A stretch of 64,000 nt of DNA from a virus: IMG/VR virus record IMGVR_UViG_3300047472_000449, one strand, 5' to 3'. Both the position numbers and the translations under genes were made by a program. Numbering within the stretch: position 1 is the stretch's first letter; each line of letters begins with the position of its first letter. Below, one piece after another: positions 148-50,240 of this stretch. The notes beneath the pieces were generated by a model. That model saw only the letters and a list, made by a program, of their open reading frames with translations, was not told the origin of the DNA and made no database searches.

Positions 148-263
148 GTTCAAAAGCCTCTCTATATTTTCATCAATAATATATTCAGCTTCTGGTCTCT
201 GGCAAGCTGTTGCATGACTTTTGCTCTTGATGCATTTAATCGAACAAATAATTGTCAAATGTA

Positions 264-292
264 TTGACATGACCGCGACGCCTCGCTATACT
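264..292 (+). promoter_or_regulatory. sigma70 promoter of peptide-RNA unit A
   Basis: TTGACA(264-269)-17 nt-TATACT(287-292). Confidence 0.85.
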
Positions 293-328
293 TACCCCAT
301 CGAAACGAGATTCTTGGAGAATTTCAGA

Positions 329-478
329 ATGTTCAACATCATGCTGATCGGCATGACACTCTGCGAGGCGCGTCCCGAAACGCGTAATCGAGAAACAGGT
401 GTTGTCATGACCGGCGCCATAACCGTCGGCGCCAAGGTGCGCTCACTGAGAGAGCGATTACTGCTCGGGGCGGCTTAG
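329..478 (+). CDS. 49-aa leader peptide, unit A
   Basis: GGAGA SD at 316-320; MFNIMLIGMT...VGAKVRSLRERLLLGAA aligns with the peptides at 1838 and 2145. Confidence 0.65.
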   Translation: MFNIMLIGMTLCEARPETRNRETGVVMTGAITVGAKVRSLRERLLLGAA

Positions 479-758
479 TTTTCGGGAACTGCCGCCCCGC
501 CCAAAACCCCAACCTCAGACTAATTATCATGGAACAGTTGCACTGGCTGTCGCTCGGAACGGTGGGATCATTTCGGATCACATTGGTGCCGGTTTACTCC
601 GCTGATAAGGCGGAAGGTAGCGCGATCAGAATGCCAGTGCGAACGGTATGCGTACCTTTCCGGGGAAGAACCGGATGCTTGGGCGGGTGGCGAGAGCGCC
701 GTCCGCCCCGATGATGTAAGCAAAAGCCCCCGCTCGGTAACCGACTGGGGGCTTTTGT
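466..758 (+). ncRNA. putative structured RNA, unit A
   Basis: long-range helix GCACTGGC(540-547)/GCCAGTGC(633-640), GGTA-TGCG-TACC hairpin, TCCGG-GGAAGAA-CCGGA hairpin; motifs shared with units B and C. Confidence 0.6.
721..758 (+). terminator. intrinsic terminator, unit A
   Basis: CAAAAGCCCCC...GGGGGCTTTTGTG; same architecture as 2418-2456. Confidence 0.85.
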
Positions 759-794
759 GATTTCCAACTCTTAGAAATGTGAAGGGATCTGCGA

Positions 795-1529
795 ATGATT
801 AAATGCGTGCGGGTAGCGTTGGTTTGCTTGGGTGCAGCCGTTATTTCAGGGTGTTATAGCGGTGGAATTAACACTGCATCAACCCAGGCAGGCGTTGATT
901 TCGAAAGACAGGAGGCGCAGCTCGCGAAGCAGCGTCAAGAGGCTGTGGCGGCTTATCGCTCAAAGTTCTCCTACTTGGCCTACAGCTACACCGTTCGACT
1001 GTACAAGACTGAGCTGAAGGCGGACGGCACGCGTGTGAAGAGCGGTCAGCCGATTAAGGAGTTTTCGGTGTCGGCCAATGGTGGTGAAATTGCGAGTTTC
1101 CATTTTGACGATTATAAGCCGACTGCTGACGACAAGCCGTTGGCCGATAATGAATTGCAGTACGTGGGTCAAAATAACCATGGCGCTCAGTATGATCTGA
1201 CGCCAGAGGCCCAGGTAAAACGCCCAGGCTCTATTGAGCTTAATGTTGATCCAAATTTGGCCTATGCCAGAGGGCGGGTGTATGTGTCGTTTAAAACTAA
1301 ACGTGTCGTAGGGGTGACCAAGGCAACGAATTTCCCCCAGCTTATGACTGGCAACTCTAATGTCACAGTGGGTAATGTCCTGCTTACTCTTCAGCCAAAA
1401 GACGGATCGGACTCACTTCGCGAAAGCAAAAAAGATTTTGTTGTCGATGCATTTTTTGTTGAGTTCGGCGTGACGGCGTTGGGTAAGCTCAAGCCTGAAG
1501 ATGTGCCGAGCGCCATTCCCAAGGGTTAA
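795..1529 (+). CDS. hypothetical lipoprotein
   Basis: 244 aa ORF; hydrophobic N-terminus ending in lipobox-like ISGC. Confidence 0.75.
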   Translation: MIKCVRVALVCLGAAVISGCYSGGINTASTQAGVDFERQEAQLAKQRQEAVAAYRSKFSYLAYSYTVRLYKTELKADGTRVKSGQPIKEFSVSANGGEIASFHFDDYKPTADDKPLADNELQYVGQNNHGAQYDLTPEAQVKRPGSIELNVDPNLAYARGRVYVSFKTKRVVGVTKATNFPQLMTGNSNVTVGNVLLTLQPKDGSDSLRESKKDFVVDAFFVEFGVTALGKLKPEDVPSAIPKG

Positions 1530-1533
1530 TGAG

Positions 1534-1752
1534 ATGATCACGGTTCTCGGTCTGCTGATGGTTGTACTGGCGTTCTGTCTGCTGTTGGCTTACCTCCAGA
1601 GCCACTTGTGGCATGGTATGCCAACCGCAATCGCCTGCGTTGCCTTCTTTGTAGTAAGTGTGATTGTGCTGGTGTACGGTCTGGAGCATGAAACCCGAGG
1701 CGGTCTTTACTACCAACAAGATCACCCGGCTGCACAGGTTGACAAGAAATAG
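1534..1752 (+). CDS. small membrane protein
   Basis: MITVLGLLMVVLAFCLLLAYL; two hydrophobic stretches; starts just after the upstream stop. Confidence 0.65.
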   Translation: MITVLGLLMVVLAFCLLLAYLQSHLWHGMPTAIACVAFFVVSVIVLVYGLEHETRGGLYYQQDHPAAQVDKK

Positions 1753-1772
1753 CAAAATATTTGTCATTACCA

Positions 1773-1801
1773 TTGACATCGATGTTTTGTCTGCCTATAA
1801 T
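1773..1801 (+). promoter_or_regulatory. sigma70 promoter of units B and C
   Basis: perfect TTGACA-17 nt-TATAAT. Confidence 0.9.
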
Positions 1802-1837
1802 AAGCCCATCAGAACGACATTCACGGAGATTCACAGA

Positions 1838-1957
1838 ATGTTCCAGATCCACACCTTCGGCGGCATCGCCGAGCATGCTGACGCGAGAGCGTCGTCCCTG
1901 ATCGGGCGACTGAGTTACGGGGTGGTGCGCCATCCCGCCAGAAAAACCGCAAAGTAG
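1838..1957 (+). CDS. 39-aa leader peptide, unit B
   Basis: CACGGAGA SD; MFQIHTFGGIAEHADARASSLIGRLSYGVVRHPARKTAK, homologous to peptide C. Confidence 0.65.
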   Translation: MFQIHTFGGIAEHADARASSLIGRLSYGVVRHPARKTAK

Positions 1958-2115
1958 CGGGGCTATACCTTCCGGCATAGAGGGAAGGCGCTCGGGCCGA
2001 CGAGAGAATATCGGTCTTGGTAAGCTGCCACTGATCGCACAGTGGAGCCATTAAGCGGCCAGAGTGCCACGGAGGACGGTTTGCGAGCCCAGTCGGGGAA
2101 GAGCCGATGTTTCAT
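1918..2115 (+). ncRNA. putative structured RNA, unit B
   Basis: hairpins CCTTCC/GGAAGG, CCGA/TCGG, CCACTG/CAGTGG, GTCGG-GGAAGAG-CCGAT; 26 nt identical to unit C (1989-2014 vs 2294-2319). Confidence 0.7.
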
Positions 2116-2144
2116 CCCCTAACGACATTCACGGAGAAGCCGAG

Positions 2145-2234
2145 ATGTTCAAGGTTCAGTTGTTCGGTATGACCGAACATGTAGACGCCAAGGCGTCGAA
2201 ATTCATCCAGCGACTGATGTGCGGGGCGGTCTAA
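2145..2234 (+). CDS. 29-aa leader peptide, unit C
   Basis: CACGGAGA SD; MFKVQLFGMTEHVDAKASKFIQRLMCGAV (below the ORF-track size cutoff). Confidence 0.65.
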   Translation: MFKVQLFGMTEHVDAKASKFIQRLMCGAV

Positions 2235-2456
2235 GCGCCGTCCCGCCAACAAGTCCACAGGGGTGGCGCTATTCTCCCGGCGTAGAGGGGGGACGCTCGG
2301 GCCGACGAGAGAATATCGGCTCTGGAAAGCTACCGCTGACGCTCAGCGGAACCATCAAGCGGCCAGGGTGCCACAGGAGACGGTTTGCGTACCTAGACTG
2401 AGGAAGTGTCAGTCAAACAAAAGCCCCGCACCGGACTCCGATGTGGGGCTTTTGTG
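2222..2456 (+). ncRNA. putative structured RNA, unit C
   Basis: tandem copy of unit B at a 308-nt period with compensatory changes (CCGCTG/CAGCGG; GACTGA-GGAAGTG-TCAGTC). Confidence 0.7.
2418..2456 (+). terminator. intrinsic (probably bidirectional) terminator
   Basis: CAAAAGCCCC...GGGGCTTTTGTG between convergent units. Confidence 0.85.
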
Positions 2457-2468
2457 TTTTCGTCATAT

Positions 2469-3726: not shown

Positions 3727-4386
3727 TTAACCGGCTACACGGATTGACAGGTTGTATCGTAGATTTCCGGTCAGCGGATGATTGCCGTCCTTGATCGGGG
3801 CAATACCATGATAACGCATGCGGTCTGGGCCTCCCCAGACCACCACGTCGCCGTGCAGCAGCGTAACCCGTTCCACTGGGTCGTCGCGGTGATTACCACC
3901 CAACAGGAACGTCGCAGGGAGCCCCAGTGAAACAGACACCACCGGCTGGAGAAACTCGCGCTCATCAGAGTCCTGGTGCAAACCAAGCTTCGCTTCTGGC
4001 GCGTAGCGATTAATGATGCAGCTATCTGGAGCAAAACCTTTAAACCCTGCTTTGGCTGCTGCCTCCACGGCCAGAGAGTAAAACAGGTCAGGCATTGAGG
4101 GCCACGGCTGCTGGTTTTTCGGATCGAGGGCGCCGTAGTGGTACTCTTCATGAAGCCCAGAAATCCAGCCCAGATCACCGCAATTGGTCATCGCCACCGA
4201 CATCTCAAAACCATTGGGCGTGACCATATGGCGAAACGCGGCTTGGGCCTCGACGCCTTTAATCAACTGGATCAACTGCTGTTCGTGTTTGCAGACAAAG
4301 CCACGAAAAATAAACGTCGCCTCACCGTATTGTTCAATGGTTTCAATCGGGGCCGAGCCGCCGAACAGATCGTCTGTGAACATCAT
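3727..4386 (-). CDS. alkB: alpha-ketoglutarate-dependent dioxygenase AlkB (alkylation repair)
   Basis: MSVAMTNCG, CIINRYAPEAKLGLHQDSDE (HxD), DVVVWGGPDRMRYHGI and RYNLSIR match the AlkB pattern. Confidence 0.93.
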   Translation of the reverse strand: MMFTDDLFGGSAPIETIEQYGEATFIFRGFVCKHEQQLIQLIKGVEAQAAFRHMVTPNGFEMSVAMTNCGDLGWISGLHEEYHYGALDPKNQQPWPSMPDLFYSLAVEAAAKAGFKGFAPDSCIINRYAPEAKLGLHQDSDEREFLQPVVSVSLGLPATFLLGGNHRDDPVERVTLLHGDVVVWGGPDRMRYHGIAPIKDGNHPLTGNLRYNLSIRVAG

Positions 4387-7641: not shown

Positions 7642-7860
7642 TTGACAAAAACACCCAGAATCGGTATATTTAAGTCATCGTGAAAACTGTTCTTTTCGCA
7701 CCGGTATTCTCCGGCGCATCTCACTGCTTCATTTCATTATTGGCCTTTGCAAAGCGAGCGTTAATGCTTTCGGCGCTTTCTGACTCAAAAAGCCCTCGCA
7801 CAAACGGGCTTATGGGCTTATTTGATCGGTAGCGCGCAAGCACCCTGGACACAAAATCAT
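7642..7860 (+). ncRNA. promoter-driven gene-free transcript or orphan leader
   Basis: TTGACA(7642-7647)-17-TATATT faces a hairpin-rich stretch with no SD-led ORF; the next gene is convergent. Confidence 0.35.
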
Positions 7861-7916
7861 CTTTGCGTCCAAGGCCTATGAATTTCAAAAATCTGCCCAT
7901 CCAATCCTTCCAGTCG

Positions 7917-8426
7917 TTAACGCGGAAGCTGTTCGATCAAGTAATCCATCAGGTCGATCTCGTGCATCCTTTCAACCCAGGCGCCAAAGTTCTCATTGAG
8001 GTAATTGAGAAATGGTTTATAGCTCTGTTGCCAAAACTCCACCAGCACGTATTGCTGCGAATCACATTGCAAGAACGCGCCAGCTTTGACCCGCAACTGG
8101 TAGTCCAGATCGGTCGTCAGGTTGGCAGTCACACTTTTGCGAACAAAGGCGCGTACCACCGGGTCTGGATCGCGCAGCTCCAGTGCTGTCATGCCGTGGC
8201 CTGACGTGGACATCCGAAAGGCGACCGGGGTCAGGGACTCCAGGTCATCGCCATAACCTACATGACCGTAGCGCTGATAGACCCATTGGCCGTCTTTTTC
8301 CGTCAGGCGAACGACACCGAATTCCTTATGGATGGCGTGCTCGCCCTCTTTGACCGGAATAAGACCATCATTGAGATCGCTGGGTTTTACAGTAAAACCA
8401 GCAATGCCTTTGACCAATACGCCCAT
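7917..8426 (-). CDS. hypothetical protein
   Basis: 169 aa ORF, last gene of the minus-strand operon. Confidence 0.7.
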   Translation of the reverse strand: MGVLVKGIAGFTVKPSDLNDGLIPVKEGEHAIHKEFGVVRLTEKDGQWVYQRYGHVGYGDDLESLTPVAFRMSTSGHGMTALELRDPDPVVRAFVRKSVTANLTTDLDYQLRVKAGAFLQCDSQQYVLVEFWQQSYKPFLNYLNENFGAWVERMHEIDLMDYLIEQLPR

Positions 8427-8438
8427 GAGAAAATGTCC

Positions 8439-8801
8439 TTATGATGCTTCGTTTTGTTGGTTGTCAGTGTACTCACCCGCACGCCGATTGTCAATGTAGA
8501 AAACACTAAACACGGTGTACAGCCAAAACCCAATACCCATCGCAAAGCCAAGGTTGTAGAAAAACCCAGAATTGGACGCGGCATAAACGGTGGTTTCTGC
8601 GAAAAGGTTGGAGATCAACGCGCAGACAGACACCAGTCCATCGGTCAGGCCGTTAAAAAAACCGAGCTTGTAGCCGAAGTCGCCCTCGCCATAAACACTC
8701 GGTTTGAAGTCATTTGCCCAATGGTACAGGTACAAGACTGGCACCAGCAGTGCGAGAGTACCGAGCAGGAGCAGAATTTTGTGTTTTACGGTGGTGATCA
8801 T
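8439..8801 (-). CDS. membrane protein
   Basis: hydrophobic segments; YAASNSGFFYNLGFAMG. Confidence 0.7.
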   Translation of the reverse strand: MITTVKHKILLLLGTLALLVPVLYLYHWANDFKPSVYGEGDFGYKLGFFNGLTDGLVSVCALISNLFAETTVYAASNSGFFYNLGFAMGIGFWLYTVFSVFYIDNRRAGEYTDNQQNEAS

Positions 8802-9361
8802 GGTGTGCCCAGGGACTTGTTGGCGTGGTCGGTAATAGTGCGCAGTTGCTCATCGGTATAGCCCAGGCGGCTGAGGTCTACGGGTTTGTTCCACGCAGTT
8901 TTGCGTTGTCTGAAGCTCTGTCGCTCGCATGCCCACTCTACCGGCACTTTGTAGCCAAGCATTCGCGACAAGCGACGACGGACTGAGCTGATGTCGTAGG
9001 CAAAATTGCGGTACTTGCCCCTCACGTTGCCGAACAACGCTTCGTCTTCGACCTCCAGTACGTAGTTGTACTGAAGGATGAGTCGCCCGCCTTTGCGCTT
9101 TTGGTAGGTTAGCCATTCATGGGGTGTTACTGGATCGGTCTTACCCGGTATCCAGCCGTTTAGAACATACGGGTATAGGGGCGTCAAAAGCCCTTTACTT
9201 TCCCAGTACGCCTTCACTTTGAGAATGACCAGTCGTGCCTTGGCCTGTCGGAAGTTCTTTCGAAACTCCGGCAGGATCTGGATATGGTTGTGTTTGAAGT
9301 GGTGCATGGCCCAGCCGGGATGCGCTCCGCTGAATTCACACAGCTTGTCGAAACCGGCCAT
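8798..9361 (-). CDS. hypothetical protein, paralog of 9361-9873
   Basis: NHIQILPEFRKNFRQAKARLV; TAATG overlap with the upstream stop. Confidence 0.8.
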   Translation of the reverse strand: MAGFDKLCEFSGAHPGWAMHHFKHNHIQILPEFRKNFRQAKARLVILKVKAYWESKGLLTPLYPYVLNGWIPGKTDPVTPHEWLTYQKRKGGRLILQYNYVLEVEDEALFGNVRGKYRNFAYDISSVRRRLSRMLGYKVPVEWACERQSFRQRKTAWNKPVDLSRLGYTDEQLRTITDHANKSLGTP

Positions 9362-9873
9362 TACTGCACGACTTCTTCTGGGATAGGCTTGGCCCACGCC
9401 GTTTTGCGTGTTTTGAAATTCAGACGATCACACTCCCGCTCAACCTTGATCTTGTAACCTAGCATCCGCGACAAGCGACGGCGAACATCGCTGATATTGC
9501 AAGACCAGTTGAGGTACTTCCCTTTTACTTGCCCAAGCAGTGCTGGATCTTCAACAATGAGGGTGTAAGTGTAATCGAGCACGAGGCGATGCTTCTTTTC
9601 TTTCTCGCGTTCGAGATACTCGTGCGGGGTCATGGTGACCGGTTCGCCGGTTTTGCCGCTAACCCAGCCCTCCAGATCATATGGGGACGGCGACATTGTA
9701 GCGCCGCGCATATCGAGAAGTGGCTCAATTTTATTGATCACCAAGCGAGCTTTAGCGCCGCGAAATTTCTTGCGATGCTCGGGCATGATCTGGATGTGAT
9801 TGCGCTTGTAGCGATACATATCGCGACCAGGGTATTCTTCGCTGAATTCGCAAACTGTTTCGATGCCAGACAT
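9361..9873 (-). CDS. hypothetical protein, paralog of 8798-9361
   Basis: NHIQIMPEHRKKFRGAKARLV; promoter TTGACA(9928-9933)/TATAAT upstream. Confidence 0.8.
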   Translation of the reverse strand: MSGIETVCEFSEEYPGRDMYRYKRNHIQIMPEHRKKFRGAKARLVINKIEPLLDMRGATMSPSPYDLEGWVSGKTGEPVTMTPHEYLEREKEKKHRLVLDYTYTLIVEDPALLGQVKGKYLNWSCNISDVRRRLSRMLGYKIKVERECDRLNFKTRKTAWAKPIPEEVVQ

Positions 9874-12501: not shown

Positions 12502-12698
12502 AGGTTATTCCGCTATTAAGTGAGCGCCTGAAGATAGAATGGCTGAAGCGGCGCCTATTGTGTTTGTGATATTAACCAGACTGACGGATAATGTCAATCA
12601 CAATGACTCCTTCTGATCATTTGTTATTGGTCTGTTTCCTTGCTTTTAATTGACTTTTTCGGTTTTTGTTGTTACATTATTTGCCAAATTATAGGGAA

Positions 12699-14228
12699 AT
12701 GATCATGCACGAATTCAAATGTGTTTCACTTAAGCGCAAAGGCTCCAAGGTGATCATTTCCTTGCGCGCTCCTTTTTTGCTCAAAAGCCACTGCCTGATT
12801 TTTTGGTATCTGGATTCGCTGGTCAAAATGTACGGAGGAAAAGGCTTCGGTATGGCGTTCTGTCCTGACACCCAGGCCATTTACGACGACTATGCAGCCG
12901 AGGCCGCTCAGATTGAAAGCGAATTCACGGTAGGTCAGCGCCTGCTGTTTGATGGCGTCATGAAAGACATTGGTGGCCCGGCAACTGGCGATGTGGATGG
13001 TAACTGGCCACAGCTTGAGTTGTTGCACGAGGTTATCAAGACCGAGCGTTTTGAGGGTGATAATGCACATAAGCTTCGCTACACCGCTCGTAATGGCTAT
13101 GACCGCAATCTTCGCATTCTTACCATGAAAGACGACTTGGTGACCTTGTACGGGCCTGATGTGACGGCCAGCGTCATGTCAGCACTGCGTGAAGCCTACA
13201 AGCGTGATGGCAAAAAGAACATTCACACCAATGGCCTGACACATGTCGGTATGCGGGCGGGGTTCTCAAAAGAATTGTTTCTTTACTCCAAGCTGGAGCG
13301 TGCTTTTAACGACGAGATTCAAAAGCAGGATGAGGTGTGGATCAAAGATAACTTCAAGGTAATCGTAGCGGTTGTTCGCTATTTTGAAAAGATTGCCCGA
13401 CTGGAAAAAGTGTCTCCGCGCATTGAGCCTAAGCCGCCTGTTCAACTGCTGTTTCTGGCTGACCCGTTCTCGCGCAAGCTTCCGGACAGTGCTTATTTGG
13501 AAGAATACGAAGCGGCTCAGGCCGCAGGTATTCCTTGTTCTTTGATTTCTTATGAGAGCATTGACGAGGGAGGTGTCTTCAGGCCTTTCCCTGCCCTTTT
13601 GCCAGATTTGCCGGTGGTGTATCGCGGCTGGATGTTGTCGTTTGACAAATACAAGCGCCTTTACCAATTGATTATTGGCTCCAAGCGAGTCCTTCTAACT
13701 GATCCAGGTCGTTACTTGGAATGCCATCATCTGCCTCGGTGGTATCACTCCGTCTCGGACTTGACGCCTGACACCTTGATTCTAAAGGAGGGCGATGATT
13801 TCAAAGAAGCCTTGTCTGACAAGCCTTGGGCTCAATACTTCGTCAAGGATTACGTGAAGTCCCTGACCACTGGACGTGGTTCAGTGGCGAAAAACGCTGA
13901 TGAGGTACGTGAGATCGTCAACCTGATTAAAGAATATCGGGATGAGATCGAGGGTGGCGTCTGCATTCGTGAGTTCGAGGATTTCGTCCCGGCAACCGAA
14001 GAGCGCTATTTCGTATATCAGGGCCGCGCCTATGGCAGAGATGGGTTGGTGCCAGATATCGTTCGGGAGGTCGCCTGTCGCATTCCGGTGCCCTTCTATT
14101 CCGTGGACATCGTGATGAACAGCGCAGGCAAACACCGGTTGGTCGAATTGGGTGATGGTCAAGTGTCTGACCTCAAACATTGGCCCATCAACACCTTTAT
14201 CAATATTTTCAAGGCAACCACAGCATGA
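12699..14228 (+). CDS. two-domain protein with C-terminal ATP-grasp domain (R2K/DUF4343 type)
   Basis: YRGWML...YFVKDYVKS...GGVCIREFE...EERYFV...FYSVDIV...RLVELGDGQVSDLK. Confidence 0.8.
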   Translation: MIMHEFKCVSLKRKGSKVIISLRAPFLLKSHCLIFWYLDSLVKMYGGKGFGMAFCPDTQAIYDDYAAEAAQIESEFTVGQRLLFDGVMKDIGGPATGDVDGNWPQLELLHEVIKTERFEGDNAHKLRYTARNGYDRNLRILTMKDDLVTLYGPDVTASVMSALREAYKRDGKKNIHTNGLTHVGMRAGFSKELFLYSKLERAFNDEIQKQDEVWIKDNFKVIVAVVRYFEKIARLEKVSPRIEPKPPVQLLFLADPFSRKLPDSAYLEEYEAAQAAGIPCSLISYESIDEGGVFRPFPALLPDLPVVYRGWMLSFDKYKRLYQLIIGSKRVLLTDPGRYLECHHLPRWYHSVSDLTPDTLILKEGDDFKEALSDKPWAQYFVKDYVKSLTTGRGSVAKNADEVREIVNLIKEYRDEIEGGVCIREFEDFVPATEERYFVYQGRAYGRDGLVPDIVREVACRIPVPFYSVDIVMNSAGKHRLVELGDGQVSDLKHWPINTFINIFKATTA

Positions 14229-15406
14229 AGATCATCTACTCCGATCACCCGATTCCATCGGAAATAACCAAGTCTTTGTTCTTGGCTGGCCCTTCGCCTC
14301 GCGAGAAATCCGTGATCGATTGGCGCCTTGAAGCCGTGTCCTTGCTCAAGGCAATGAACTTTGACGGTGAGGTGTTTATTCCGATCCCTGAGGCCCGGTT
14401 TGCTGGCGGCGAAGATCAGGCTGACTGGACGTATGACAATCAGGTCGAGTGGGAGTGTAAGGCGCGGAACGTCGCAGATCAGATCCTGTTCTGGATTCCG
14501 CGAGACATCAAAAACGGCATGCCAGGGTTCACCACCAACATTGAATTTGGCGAAGACCTGGGTTCCGGGAAAATCGTTTACGGTCGCCCGCCTGCCGCTG
14601 AAAAATGCCGCTATCTGGATAAGCGCATCGAAGGCCTTGGGCTGGCGGTACACGATACGTTGGAGTCTGTGCTTGCCTGCGCCATTGGCGCGCTCGGCAA
14701 AGGCGCTCTGCGTTGCCAGGGCGAGGTTAACGTCCCCCTGTTCATCTGGAATACAGTGTCCTTTCAGGTCTGGTACGACAACCTGAAGCAGGCCGGTAAT
14801 CGCCTCGACGGCGCTCACCTGTTGCACCATTTCCGCTTGCCCAACGGGAAAGTGTTGAGTTTTAACTTGGCAGTGAACATCTGGGTCGCCGCTGAGCAGC
14901 GACACAAGAGCAACGAATTCATCATCTCGCGCCCTGATGTTTCGGTTGTCGTCGCGTACTACCAGGAAAACGTCAACGTGCCGCGCAAGCAAGTGGTGTT
15001 GATCAAGGAGTTTCGCAGCACCGTCAACAGCCCCGGTGGCTACGTCTACGAGCTTCCGGGTGGCAGCGCCGTGGAAAATCCGGACGTTGACCTAGCTGGA
15101 CTGGTGAACGCCCAGCATGAGCTGCATGAAGAAACCGGTATCCTGATCGACGACATGCGGCGCTTTGAATACGTCGGCCTAAAACAACTGACCGCCACAC
15201 AGTCCACGCACCGGGCACAGGTCTATCGCGTGGCGCTGACCCAGGCGGAATATGAATCGCTGGCGCGCAGTGCTGCCGAAGGCCATGAATTTGGTGTTGA
15301 GGGTGACGGTGAGCGCACTTCGGTTCATGTGGTGGATCTCATCGATCTTGACCGTTATGCGCTGGATTTCTCAATGATCGGCATTATCCACACGGCGCTT
15401 AAATAG
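14225..15406 (+). CDS. nucleoside 2-deoxyribosyltransferase-like / NUDIX hydrolase fusion
   Basis: SLFLAGPSPR...QVEWE...ILFWIPR...TTNIEFG (NDT-like) and YELPGGS...AQHELHEETG (NUDIX box); ATGA overlap with the ATP-grasp gene. Confidence 0.85.
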   Translation: MKIIYSDHPIPSEITKSLFLAGPSPREKSVIDWRLEAVSLLKAMNFDGEVFIPIPEARFAGGEDQADWTYDNQVEWECKARNVADQILFWIPRDIKNGMPGFTTNIEFGEDLGSGKIVYGRPPAAEKCRYLDKRIEGLGLAVHDTLESVLACAIGALGKGALRCQGEVNVPLFIWNTVSFQVWYDNLKQAGNRLDGAHLLHHFRLPNGKVLSFNLAVNIWVAAEQRHKSNEFIISRPDVSVVVAYYQENVNVPRKQVVLIKEFRSTVNSPGGYVYELPGGSAVENPDVDLAGLVNAQHELHEETGILIDDMRRFEYVGLKQLTATQSTHRAQVYRVALTQAEYESLARSAAEGHEFGVEGDGERTSVHVVDLIDLDRYALDFSMIGIIHTALK

Positions 15407-49851: not shown

Positions 49852-50240
49852 TGGTGGAGCCGGGGGGATTTGAACCCCCGTCCGTCAGTACTCCGCTGTC
49901 GGTACTACATGCGTAGCCAGATCTATTAAGTTAACCCGTGGCGACCCGATTGGCAGGGTGCGTTGGGCGAGTCGTGTAATGTTTAACTGCTTCGTCCACG
50001 ACGTACTAGGCAGCGATCCTGTTCTATCTGACAATCAGTTCGGGTTTACAGGCATCCCCTAGTGACTGCTGGCACCGAAGTGACCAGAAGTGCATGTCAG
50101 CTGCAATTAAGCAGCGAGAGCAGCACCGAAGGTTTCGTCATTGGCAACTATAAAAGTCGCAACAGTGGATTTACGAGTTCTGTTACCAACTCGGCATGCA
50201 CCTAAAGTTTCGTTACCAGCGTCGAATCCTAATCGGCCCC
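49852..50240 (-). ncRNA. ssrA: tmRNA (389 nt), tag ANDETFGAALAA
   Basis: 5' GGGGCCGATTAGGATTCGAC, 3' GGTTCAAATCCCCCCGGCTCCACCA with G3:U70 pair; tag codons 50145-50107. Confidence 0.97.

Follow-up and report, generated by a model that had tools for sequence, protein, structure and literature searches.

The dual-function small RNAs SgrS/SgrT, RNAIII/delta-haemolysin and SR1/SR1P join a short open reading frame (ORF) to a structured RNA in one stand-alone transcript. We have found three paralogous units of comparable anatomy in IMG/VR virus record IMGVR_UViG_3300047472_000449, of which a stretch of 64,000 nucleotides (nt), hereafter the window, was analyzed. The window seems to belong to a 1.14-Mb metagenome contig, and the carrier is a giant, uncultivated, largely unannotated mobile element. 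The units resemble the dual-function RNAs in their stand-alone transcript anatomy, here predicted, with promoter and terminator, and in combining a short ORF with structured RNA under selection at the nucleotide level. They differ in that the ORF precedes a 200-nt multi-helix domain and extends into its first hairpin, and in that three paralogues are present, two of them in tandem; they also have no sequence or Rfam similarity to these RNAs and, within the window, no seed-type complementarity above chance. We tentatively interpret the units as an undescribed family of ~300-nt structured RNAs with a translated leader, found in a small clade of giant mobile elements. They are new as an RNA family. 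The general kind, a small ORF plus structured RNA in the dual-function or leader style, is known, and it is the architecture and the degree of conservation that are unusual.

The leader attenuators of the his, thr and trp operons offer a further comparison. Unit A (the first of the three, followed by B and C) is like them in having a Shine-Dalgarno (SD) site and short ORF, hairpins and an intrinsic terminator ahead of structural genes. Unlike attenuators, the units have ~200 nt of conserved structure between ORF and terminator, and no run of regulatory codons is present in the peptides of A, B or C. Units B and C also lack downstream genes: behind B lies only C, and beyond the terminator of C the genes run on the opposite strand.

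The units lie within positions 264-2458 of the window (A, ~299-762; B, ~1808-2113; C, 2114-2458) and share one plan, in which a conserved 5′ head with the SD site is followed by an ORF of 29-49 codons and then by a multi-hairpin domain of ~200 nt. The 17-nt head together with ATGTTC has exactly three matches in the 64 kb (304, 1813 and 2121), where shuffled sequences are expected to give none, and a second motif of 25 nt taken from the RNA domain likewise has three matches against none expected. The three units could be aligned over their whole length using MAFFT. Their features are given below.

253..292, plus strand: unit A promoter; a palindromic operator-like site (253-269) overlaps the −35 box (264-269); −10 box at 287-292
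299..328, plus strand: unit A 5′ untranslated region (UTR), holding the 17-nt head with the SD site (304-320)
329..478, plus strand: unit A short ORF, 49 codons; hairpin P0 at 428-443
466..675, plus strand: unit A RNA domain, from secondary-structure folds and the covariance-model match
466-474/491-499, plus strand: unit A helix P1, with the stop codon inside its loop
about 599-613, plus strand: unit A helix P5, from folds
645-656, plus strand: unit A UGCG hairpin, from folds
659-663/671-675, plus strand: unit A helix P7, the last hairpin, with loop 664-670, from folds
682-708, plus strand: extra GC-rich hairpin peculiar to unit A, from folds
722-758, plus strand: unit A intrinsic terminator, seen in folds and partly by a terminator scan
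1762..1801, plus strand: unit B promoter; a palindromic site (1762-1778) overlaps the −35 box (1773-1778); −10 box at 1796-1801
1808..2113, plus strand: unit B; head 1813-1829; ORF 1838-1957, 39 codons; P0 1880-1893
1918-1925/1930-1937, 1947-1950/1957-1960 and 1968-1973/1983-1988, plus strand: unit B helices P1, P1b and P2
1989-1993/2062-2066, 1994-2000/2011-2017 and 2024-2033/2040-2048, plus strand: unit B helices P3, P4 and P5
2078-2081/2086-2089 and 2092-2096/2104-2108, plus strand: unit B helices P6 and P7, with P7 loop 2097-2103
2114..2458, plus strand: unit C; head 2121-2137; ORF 2145-2234, 29 codons, with the stop in the P1 loop
2222-2229/2238-2245 and 2396-2401/2409-2414, plus strand: unit C helices P1 and P7, with P7 loop 2402-2408; other helices as in B
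2419-2456, plus strand: unit C intrinsic terminator, seen in folds and partly by a terminator scan

Promoter B matches the sigma70 consensus at 12/12 positions and promoter A at 11/12, both with 17-nt spacers, and the −35 box of each forms one arm of a TGTCA-N7-TGACA-type palindrome. The terminators of A and C consist of a long GC stem and a U run. Unit C has no promoter of its own and begins 6 nt past the last hairpin of B, with which it is predicted to be co-transcribed. Based on the promoter and terminator positions, two transcripts are predicted, A from ~299 to ~760 (~460 nt) and B-C from ~1808 to ~2457 (~650 nt); the latter may be cut into two units near 2113-2120. From promoter quality we infer high expression, so that both transcripts would be abundant. 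A consensus scan of the minus strand within 297-762 and 1806-2458 detected no promoter-like site.

The original prediction, made from this sequence alone, had described most of this layout, and its observation is confirmed. Three homologous units with one head motif were recovered, the ORFs at 329-478, 1838-1957 and 2145-2234 encode the short peptides that it quoted, and its GC hairpin over the last conserved codons is P1. Also seen were the stem differences between B and C together with a stretch of 26 nt identical between them, a UGCG-loop hairpin (GGT[AT]TGCG[TA][AG]CC) in the window units, and a final hairpin with three different stems and a 7-nt loop. The near-perfect sigma70 promoters of A and B, the terminators of A and C, and the transcripts of roughly 460 and 650 nt that it proposed all agree with the elements listed above.

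Selection on the units is the strongest result of the analysis. Nine syntenic metagenome contigs, reached through homologues of the lipoprotein encoded at 795-1529 and of the called peptides, carry the units at 88-100% nucleotide identity to the window. One of them, L138 (JGI 3300046522, positions 747231-753350 of a 1,136,430-bp contig), is identical to the window across A, B and C; contigs of other relatives measure 134,772, 52,269 and 41,373 bp. Region by region, the window was compared with three diverged relatives. The 5′ UTR of unit A is 100% identical, its ORF 98.7-99.3% and its RNA domain 88-89%; the RNA domain of B is 98.8-99.4% and its ORF 94-97.5% identical, and the RNA domain of C 93.9-97.2%. 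Among the flanks, promoter spacers are 41-77% identical (53-71% for A, whose −35 and −10 boxes are kept, and 41-77% for B), the lipoprotein gene 72-80% and the gene for a 72-aa membrane protein 79-90%, while four-fold sites of five flanking genes are 39-84% identical. Conservation runs from the −10 box to the terminator. Since the units are 88-100% identical while neutral sites differ by 16-61%, we conclude from these alignments that strong purifying selection acts on the nucleotides of the putatively transcribed sequence, the synonymous sites of the ORFs among them. In the relative L133, the C terminator stem directly beside the frozen domain has been altered by compensatory substitutions, which argues against a recent sweep; nor is the gradient inside A, from an ORF of ~99% to an RNA domain of 88-89%, explained by a single recent transfer. 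In L136 (587-2077) the lipoprotein gene is absent, and A, the 72-aa membrane protein gene, B and C are retained in order.

A 49-pair model comprising P1, P1b, P2, P3, P4, P5, P6 and P7 was tested on 12 B and C sequences, in which 93.5% of cells were paired, compared with 39-48% when the partners were slid. Changes on both sides were found in seven pairs, located in P1, P1b, P2 (two), P5 and P7, plus one variant in P4. In P0, inside the ORF, an A-U pair of B and C corresponds to G-C in A. In P4, a G-to-A substitution in L133 turns G-U into A-U, and three bases facing an invariant GGG vary among pyrimidines only. Invariant single-stranded segments join the hairpins. The clearest structural element is P7, where four unrelated stems, those of A, B, C and a fourth type (copy D), carry one fixed 7-nt purine loop. 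Its forms among the window units are GGAAGAR and GGAAGUG, and two changes were seen in relatives: GGAGGAG, which is more SD-like, in L136 and L137, and U-to-A in unit C of L136. Other candidate pairings were rejected. Variants in L133 and L140 contradict a helix between the P4 loop region and the conserved 3′ junction, and a G-to-A substitution found in both L136 and L137 contradicts one between the 5′ strand of P2 and an internal purine motif. In C, the P4 loop also matches the P2 region over 7 bp, but B has not kept this match.

The boxB loop of lambda nutL contains GAAGA, and boxB is bound by the arginine-rich N peptide. P7 bears a resemblance to lambdoid nut sites that serves as a lead only, being a hairpin of 5-6 bp with GAAGA in its loop, in a unit that encodes a small basic peptide. 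Unlike nut sites, the P7 loop has 7 nt rather than 5, and there is no adjoining boxA, no N-like protein and no nut-type operon layout.

A covariance model, R1, was built from B and C only. R1 finds unit A at full length, with an E value of 5e-8 for the window copy and of 5e-5 to 4e-4 for those of relatives, and it finds the truncated copy D (L142:12496-12590, minus strand; E 2.8e-11, 39.7 bits), compared with a best score of 15.3 bits in 766 kb of unrelated DNA. Copy D occupies the extreme end of L142, a 44-kb contig with an AlkB 65% identical to that of the window. It retains P5, the junction and the P7 loop; its P7 stem is new, and the outer end of P4 has lost 6 nt. Because of this diverged copy, the family is wider than the close clade.

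Comparison with known families supports the earlier statement that the units belong to no named RNA family. No Rfam 15 family was matched at its gathering threshold, and at E values up to 10 only terminator look-alikes were returned. The best of these was His_leader (24.3 bits against a threshold of 49, terminator only); the weak matches to His and Thr leaders (18-24 bits against gathering scores of 49-55) covered only terminators, and the ohsC model, a type I antitoxin RNA, reached only E 5.8. Searches of plasmid and phage collections by megablast and blastn with the region and with the first 20 kb gave no match. Three patterns scanned against IMG/VR were without match and one had nine chance matches; a scan of genome_contigs gave 129 loci among the matches listed, none of them similar to the units, using a loose pattern that may miss true copies. 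No match to the unit pattern was obtained in 802 genomes, sampled from the orders to which a Janthinobacterium and a Pseudomonas genome belong, and full-text search of the literature returned nothing relevant. The one match of a metagenome pattern scan, L130, fell within guaB and was attributed to chance. To date the family is known only from a handful of metagenome contigs of one narrow clade.

The short ORFs are probably translated. SD and AUG are identical in 17/17 copies, with a variable spacer between them, and indels between paralogues inside the ORF (57 and 3 nt, the former an in-frame insert of unit A relative to B and C) keep the frame, whereas those of the RNA domain are of 1-2 nt. 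The stop codon is positioned in the loop of P1 (A and C) or of P1b (B), and in variants of C it is held at the same codon of the P1 loop despite an indel. Gene callers annotated the short ORFs in several assemblies. The encoded peptides are basic and lack a membrane span; the nearest approach to one is a hydrophobic start of at most 12 residues in A. We read the ORF as a translated leader in which the act of translation would matter more than the product. The 3′ domain is non-coding, as its indels break the reading frame; no shared ORF was found there when the units were compared, and a coding 3′ domain was rejected on both counts.

We hypothesize that the units serve chiefly to make the RNA, a series of hairpins with P0 in the ORF, P1 over the stop codon and then P2 to P7, and that the ORF would be translated without the peptide being the main selected product. 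The folded 3′ domain would be a stable RNA with a protein or the translation machinery, most likely a protein or the ribosome, as its binding partner; the invariant junction and the fixed purine-rich P7 loop would be the points of contact, and the RNA would act in trans. A ribosome on the ORF would have to melt P0 and P1 and, in B and C, would also cover an ORF segment that is, in our reading of the folds, complementary to one P7 strand; translation of the leader would therefore set the downstream fold. In unit A, partial read-through of the terminator would also feed the lipoprotein and membrane-protein genes. The family-level statement has a good chance of being correct and the mechanism a low one; taken whole, mechanism included, we consider the explanation slightly more apt to fail in some part than to hold. 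A stronger version, a self-contained RNA-peptide module in which translation of the ORF remodels its own 3′ domain and the resulting particle acts in trans on host translation, RNA decay or defence machinery, is quite doubtful. Within it, the basic peptide may possibly bind its own 3′ domain. If true, the dual constraint would explain the nucleotide-level freezing of both the ORF and the non-coding part.

Several observations weigh against our interpretation. The structure was derived from the same sequences that were used to test it, nearly all double changes separate paralogue types and so represent few independent events, and z-scores of minimum free energy are modest (−1.1 to −2.0, with −1.2 for the minus strand of B). 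At the junction, local P4 and a long-range pairing compete; changes in orthologues favour P4, and one fits the alternative. The multi-stem domain that the original prediction gave to all units holds for B and C, and for A only in part. Unit A has no counterparts of P1b and P2, the UGCG hairpin (P6) is lost in 4/5 A variants from relatives, and what A shares with B and C is limited to P0, P1, part of the P3/P4 region, P5, the conserved junction and P7, so that the common fold is less extensive than B and C alone would imply. The rest of the window contains 12-13 complementary 11-mers against an estimated ~10, which is the chance rate. The ratio of non-synonymous to synonymous substitution rates (dN/dS) between peptide paralogues is 0.43-0.70, and a hand count of orthologue ORF changes gave ~9 synonymous and ~13 non-synonymous. 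The peptide is thus weakly constrained, and the argument for translation comes down to ORF anatomy. Finally, both copy D and unit A stand upstream of genes, a position that suits action in cis, as a leader, no less than action in trans.

Two rivals are serious. The units could be cis-acting leaders, each a translated upstream ORF with a sensor domain, governing transcriptional read-through into the genes behind it or their translation, so that A would control the lipoprotein and 72-aa protein operon via its terminator, D would control an AbiEi-like gene, and B and C would be duplicated leaders. The order of SD site, short ORF, hairpins and terminator is that of a classical attenuator. No promoter-like site was found between the A terminator (722-758) and the lipoprotein ATG at 795, so the operon behind A, from these positions, is probably reachable only by read-through, and copy D precedes, by ~90 nt and with no terminator in between, a DUF6088 gene on the same strand that has a weak AbiEi-like (antitoxin) match; both lie within L142 11986-12590, minus strand. 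However, two of the three units, B and C, have nothing to regulate and yet are the most conserved, the folds show no antiterminator pairing that competes with the terminator stem, the ORFs lack a regulatory codon run, and the unit is unchanged in L136, where the lipoprotein gene is missing. We consider this reading unlikely. The same holds for one in which the basic peptides of 29-49 aa are themselves effectors, for example modulators of host or defence proteins, and the hairpins only stabilize the messenger RNA or tune its translation. Good SD spacing, the invariant AUG, frame-preserving indels, the kept stop position, the calls of gene callers and a dN/dS below 1 all speak for it, as do the many small genes with their own promoters in this element. 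The same dN/dS values are, however, weak constraint for an effector, the ORF synonymous sites are nearly frozen, and constraint on the RNA can explain the conserved C-terminal residues, whose codons overlap hairpins P0 and P1. Moreover, the non-coding 160-200 nt are conserved like the ORF or more (~99% in the RNA domain of B against 94-97.5% in its ORF), far beyond the need of a stabilizer, and a HMMER search of 1.84 billion representative proteins returned only the three peptide clusters themselves.

The original prediction had also suggested an RsmA/CsrA-type sponge, in which the RNA titrates a CsrA-family protein through GGA motifs in its loops. As in CsrB, RsmY and RsmZ, the short hairpin P7 displays GGA in its loop, which is always retained, even in the GGAGGAG form of L136 and L137; SD-like purine motifs occupy single-stranded stretches, and an A-N-GGA motif before P6 is kept in B, C and D though neighbouring bases change. 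Against this, GGA is not enriched (9, 6 and 7 copies in A, B and C, compared with 9.5, 7.4 and 8.0 expected from composition) and occurs in only one of ~8 loops, that of P7. The internal, CACGGAG-type motif is missing from A, no Rfam model of CsrB, RsmY or RsmZ was matched, and a regex scan of six frames found no CsrA-like frame in the 64-kb window. The sponge is therefore very improbable, and the interpretation in the original prediction is only partly supported: its inference of selection on the RNA is upheld by the divergence figures, compensatory stems and fixed loop, and its ideas of a translation-coupled sensor or a peptide-RNA effector are possible. A type I toxin-antitoxin-like locus, with a tightly folded messenger RNA for a small toxic peptide as in hok/sok, would account for a small ORF within a long, highly conserved and heavily folded transcript, and the 17-nt head can, in our reading of the folds, pair with the start-codon region in A and B, which would hold translation down. 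Unlike hok/sok, the peptides are basic rather than hydrophobic or membrane-spanning, a consensus scan found no antisense promoter within the units, and there is neither homology nor a match to any of the many type I antitoxin families of Rfam; we give this reading very little credence. That the units have no function, being drifting duplications or a block recently spread among elements by recombination, is the least probable reading and is largely refuted by the comparisons. Conservation could in principle be recent, as a single narrow clade is known, but it extends from the −10 box to the terminator next to spacers of 41-77% identity, the C terminator stem has compensatory changes, the gradient inside A is unlike a single recent transfer, and the diverged fourth type is found in an element with an AlkB of 65% identity.

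The carrier element provides some context for the units. Most proteins sampled from it have no Pfam or PHROG match, and the annotated neighbours are as follows.

795-1529, plus strand: lipoprotein gene, with a protein 56-73% identical in most relatives; the gene is absent in L136
1534-1752, plus strand: 72-aa membrane protein gene, between the lipoprotein gene and unit B
3727-4386, minus strand: AlkB-type dioxygenase, 96-98% identical in close relatives
12666-14228, plus strand: R2K-clade ATP-grasp protein
14180-15406, plus strand: nucleoside 2-deoxyribosyltransferase-like protein
49852-50240, minus strand: complete transfer-messenger RNA (tmRNA) gene, with tag peptide ANDETFGAALAA; its neighbours are almost all unannotated

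The AlkB, R2K ATP-grasp and nucleoside 2-deoxyribosyltransferase-like genes all lie ≤13 kb from the units, and the nearest cellular relatives of the AlkB are betaproteobacterial, at 55-57% identity. The unit A peptide and one C variant end in Gly-Ala-Ala, loosely recalling the end of the tmRNA tag. No IscB or TnpB gene is present beside the units, and no HEARO match was obtained. The 876,603-bp contig L134 has a lipoprotein homologue, and the covariance model found no unit there; it encodes an IscB-like protein (8253-9593; RRXRR and HNH, 446 aa) 1.5 kb from that homologue, and a 590-nt gap upstream of this gene (7664-8253) could hold its guide RNA. Another contig, L135 (80-656 and 1805-1880), has a distant relative of the lipoprotein locus with four tRNA genes (Ser, Leu, Met and Thr). 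Upstream of its tRNA-Thr gene are ~470 nt of GC-rich, unannotated sequence ending in a hairpin with GGAAG in the loop; this look-alike, a short motif plus the GGAAG loop, had no support from nhmmer or the covariance model with filters off, and was rejected as chance.

The narrow known distribution limits the impact of the finding for now. If the RNAs are expressed, they would represent a new structured RNA family under unusually strong constraint, with non-coding sequence ~99% identical where neutral sites differ by 16-61%. A putatively translated ORF whose end falls within the first hairpin of a conserved RNA domain would be a tractable case for the coupling of translation and folding, and a conserved RNA present in three copies per megabase-scale element that also encodes a tmRNA would offer a handle on how such elements affect their hosts.

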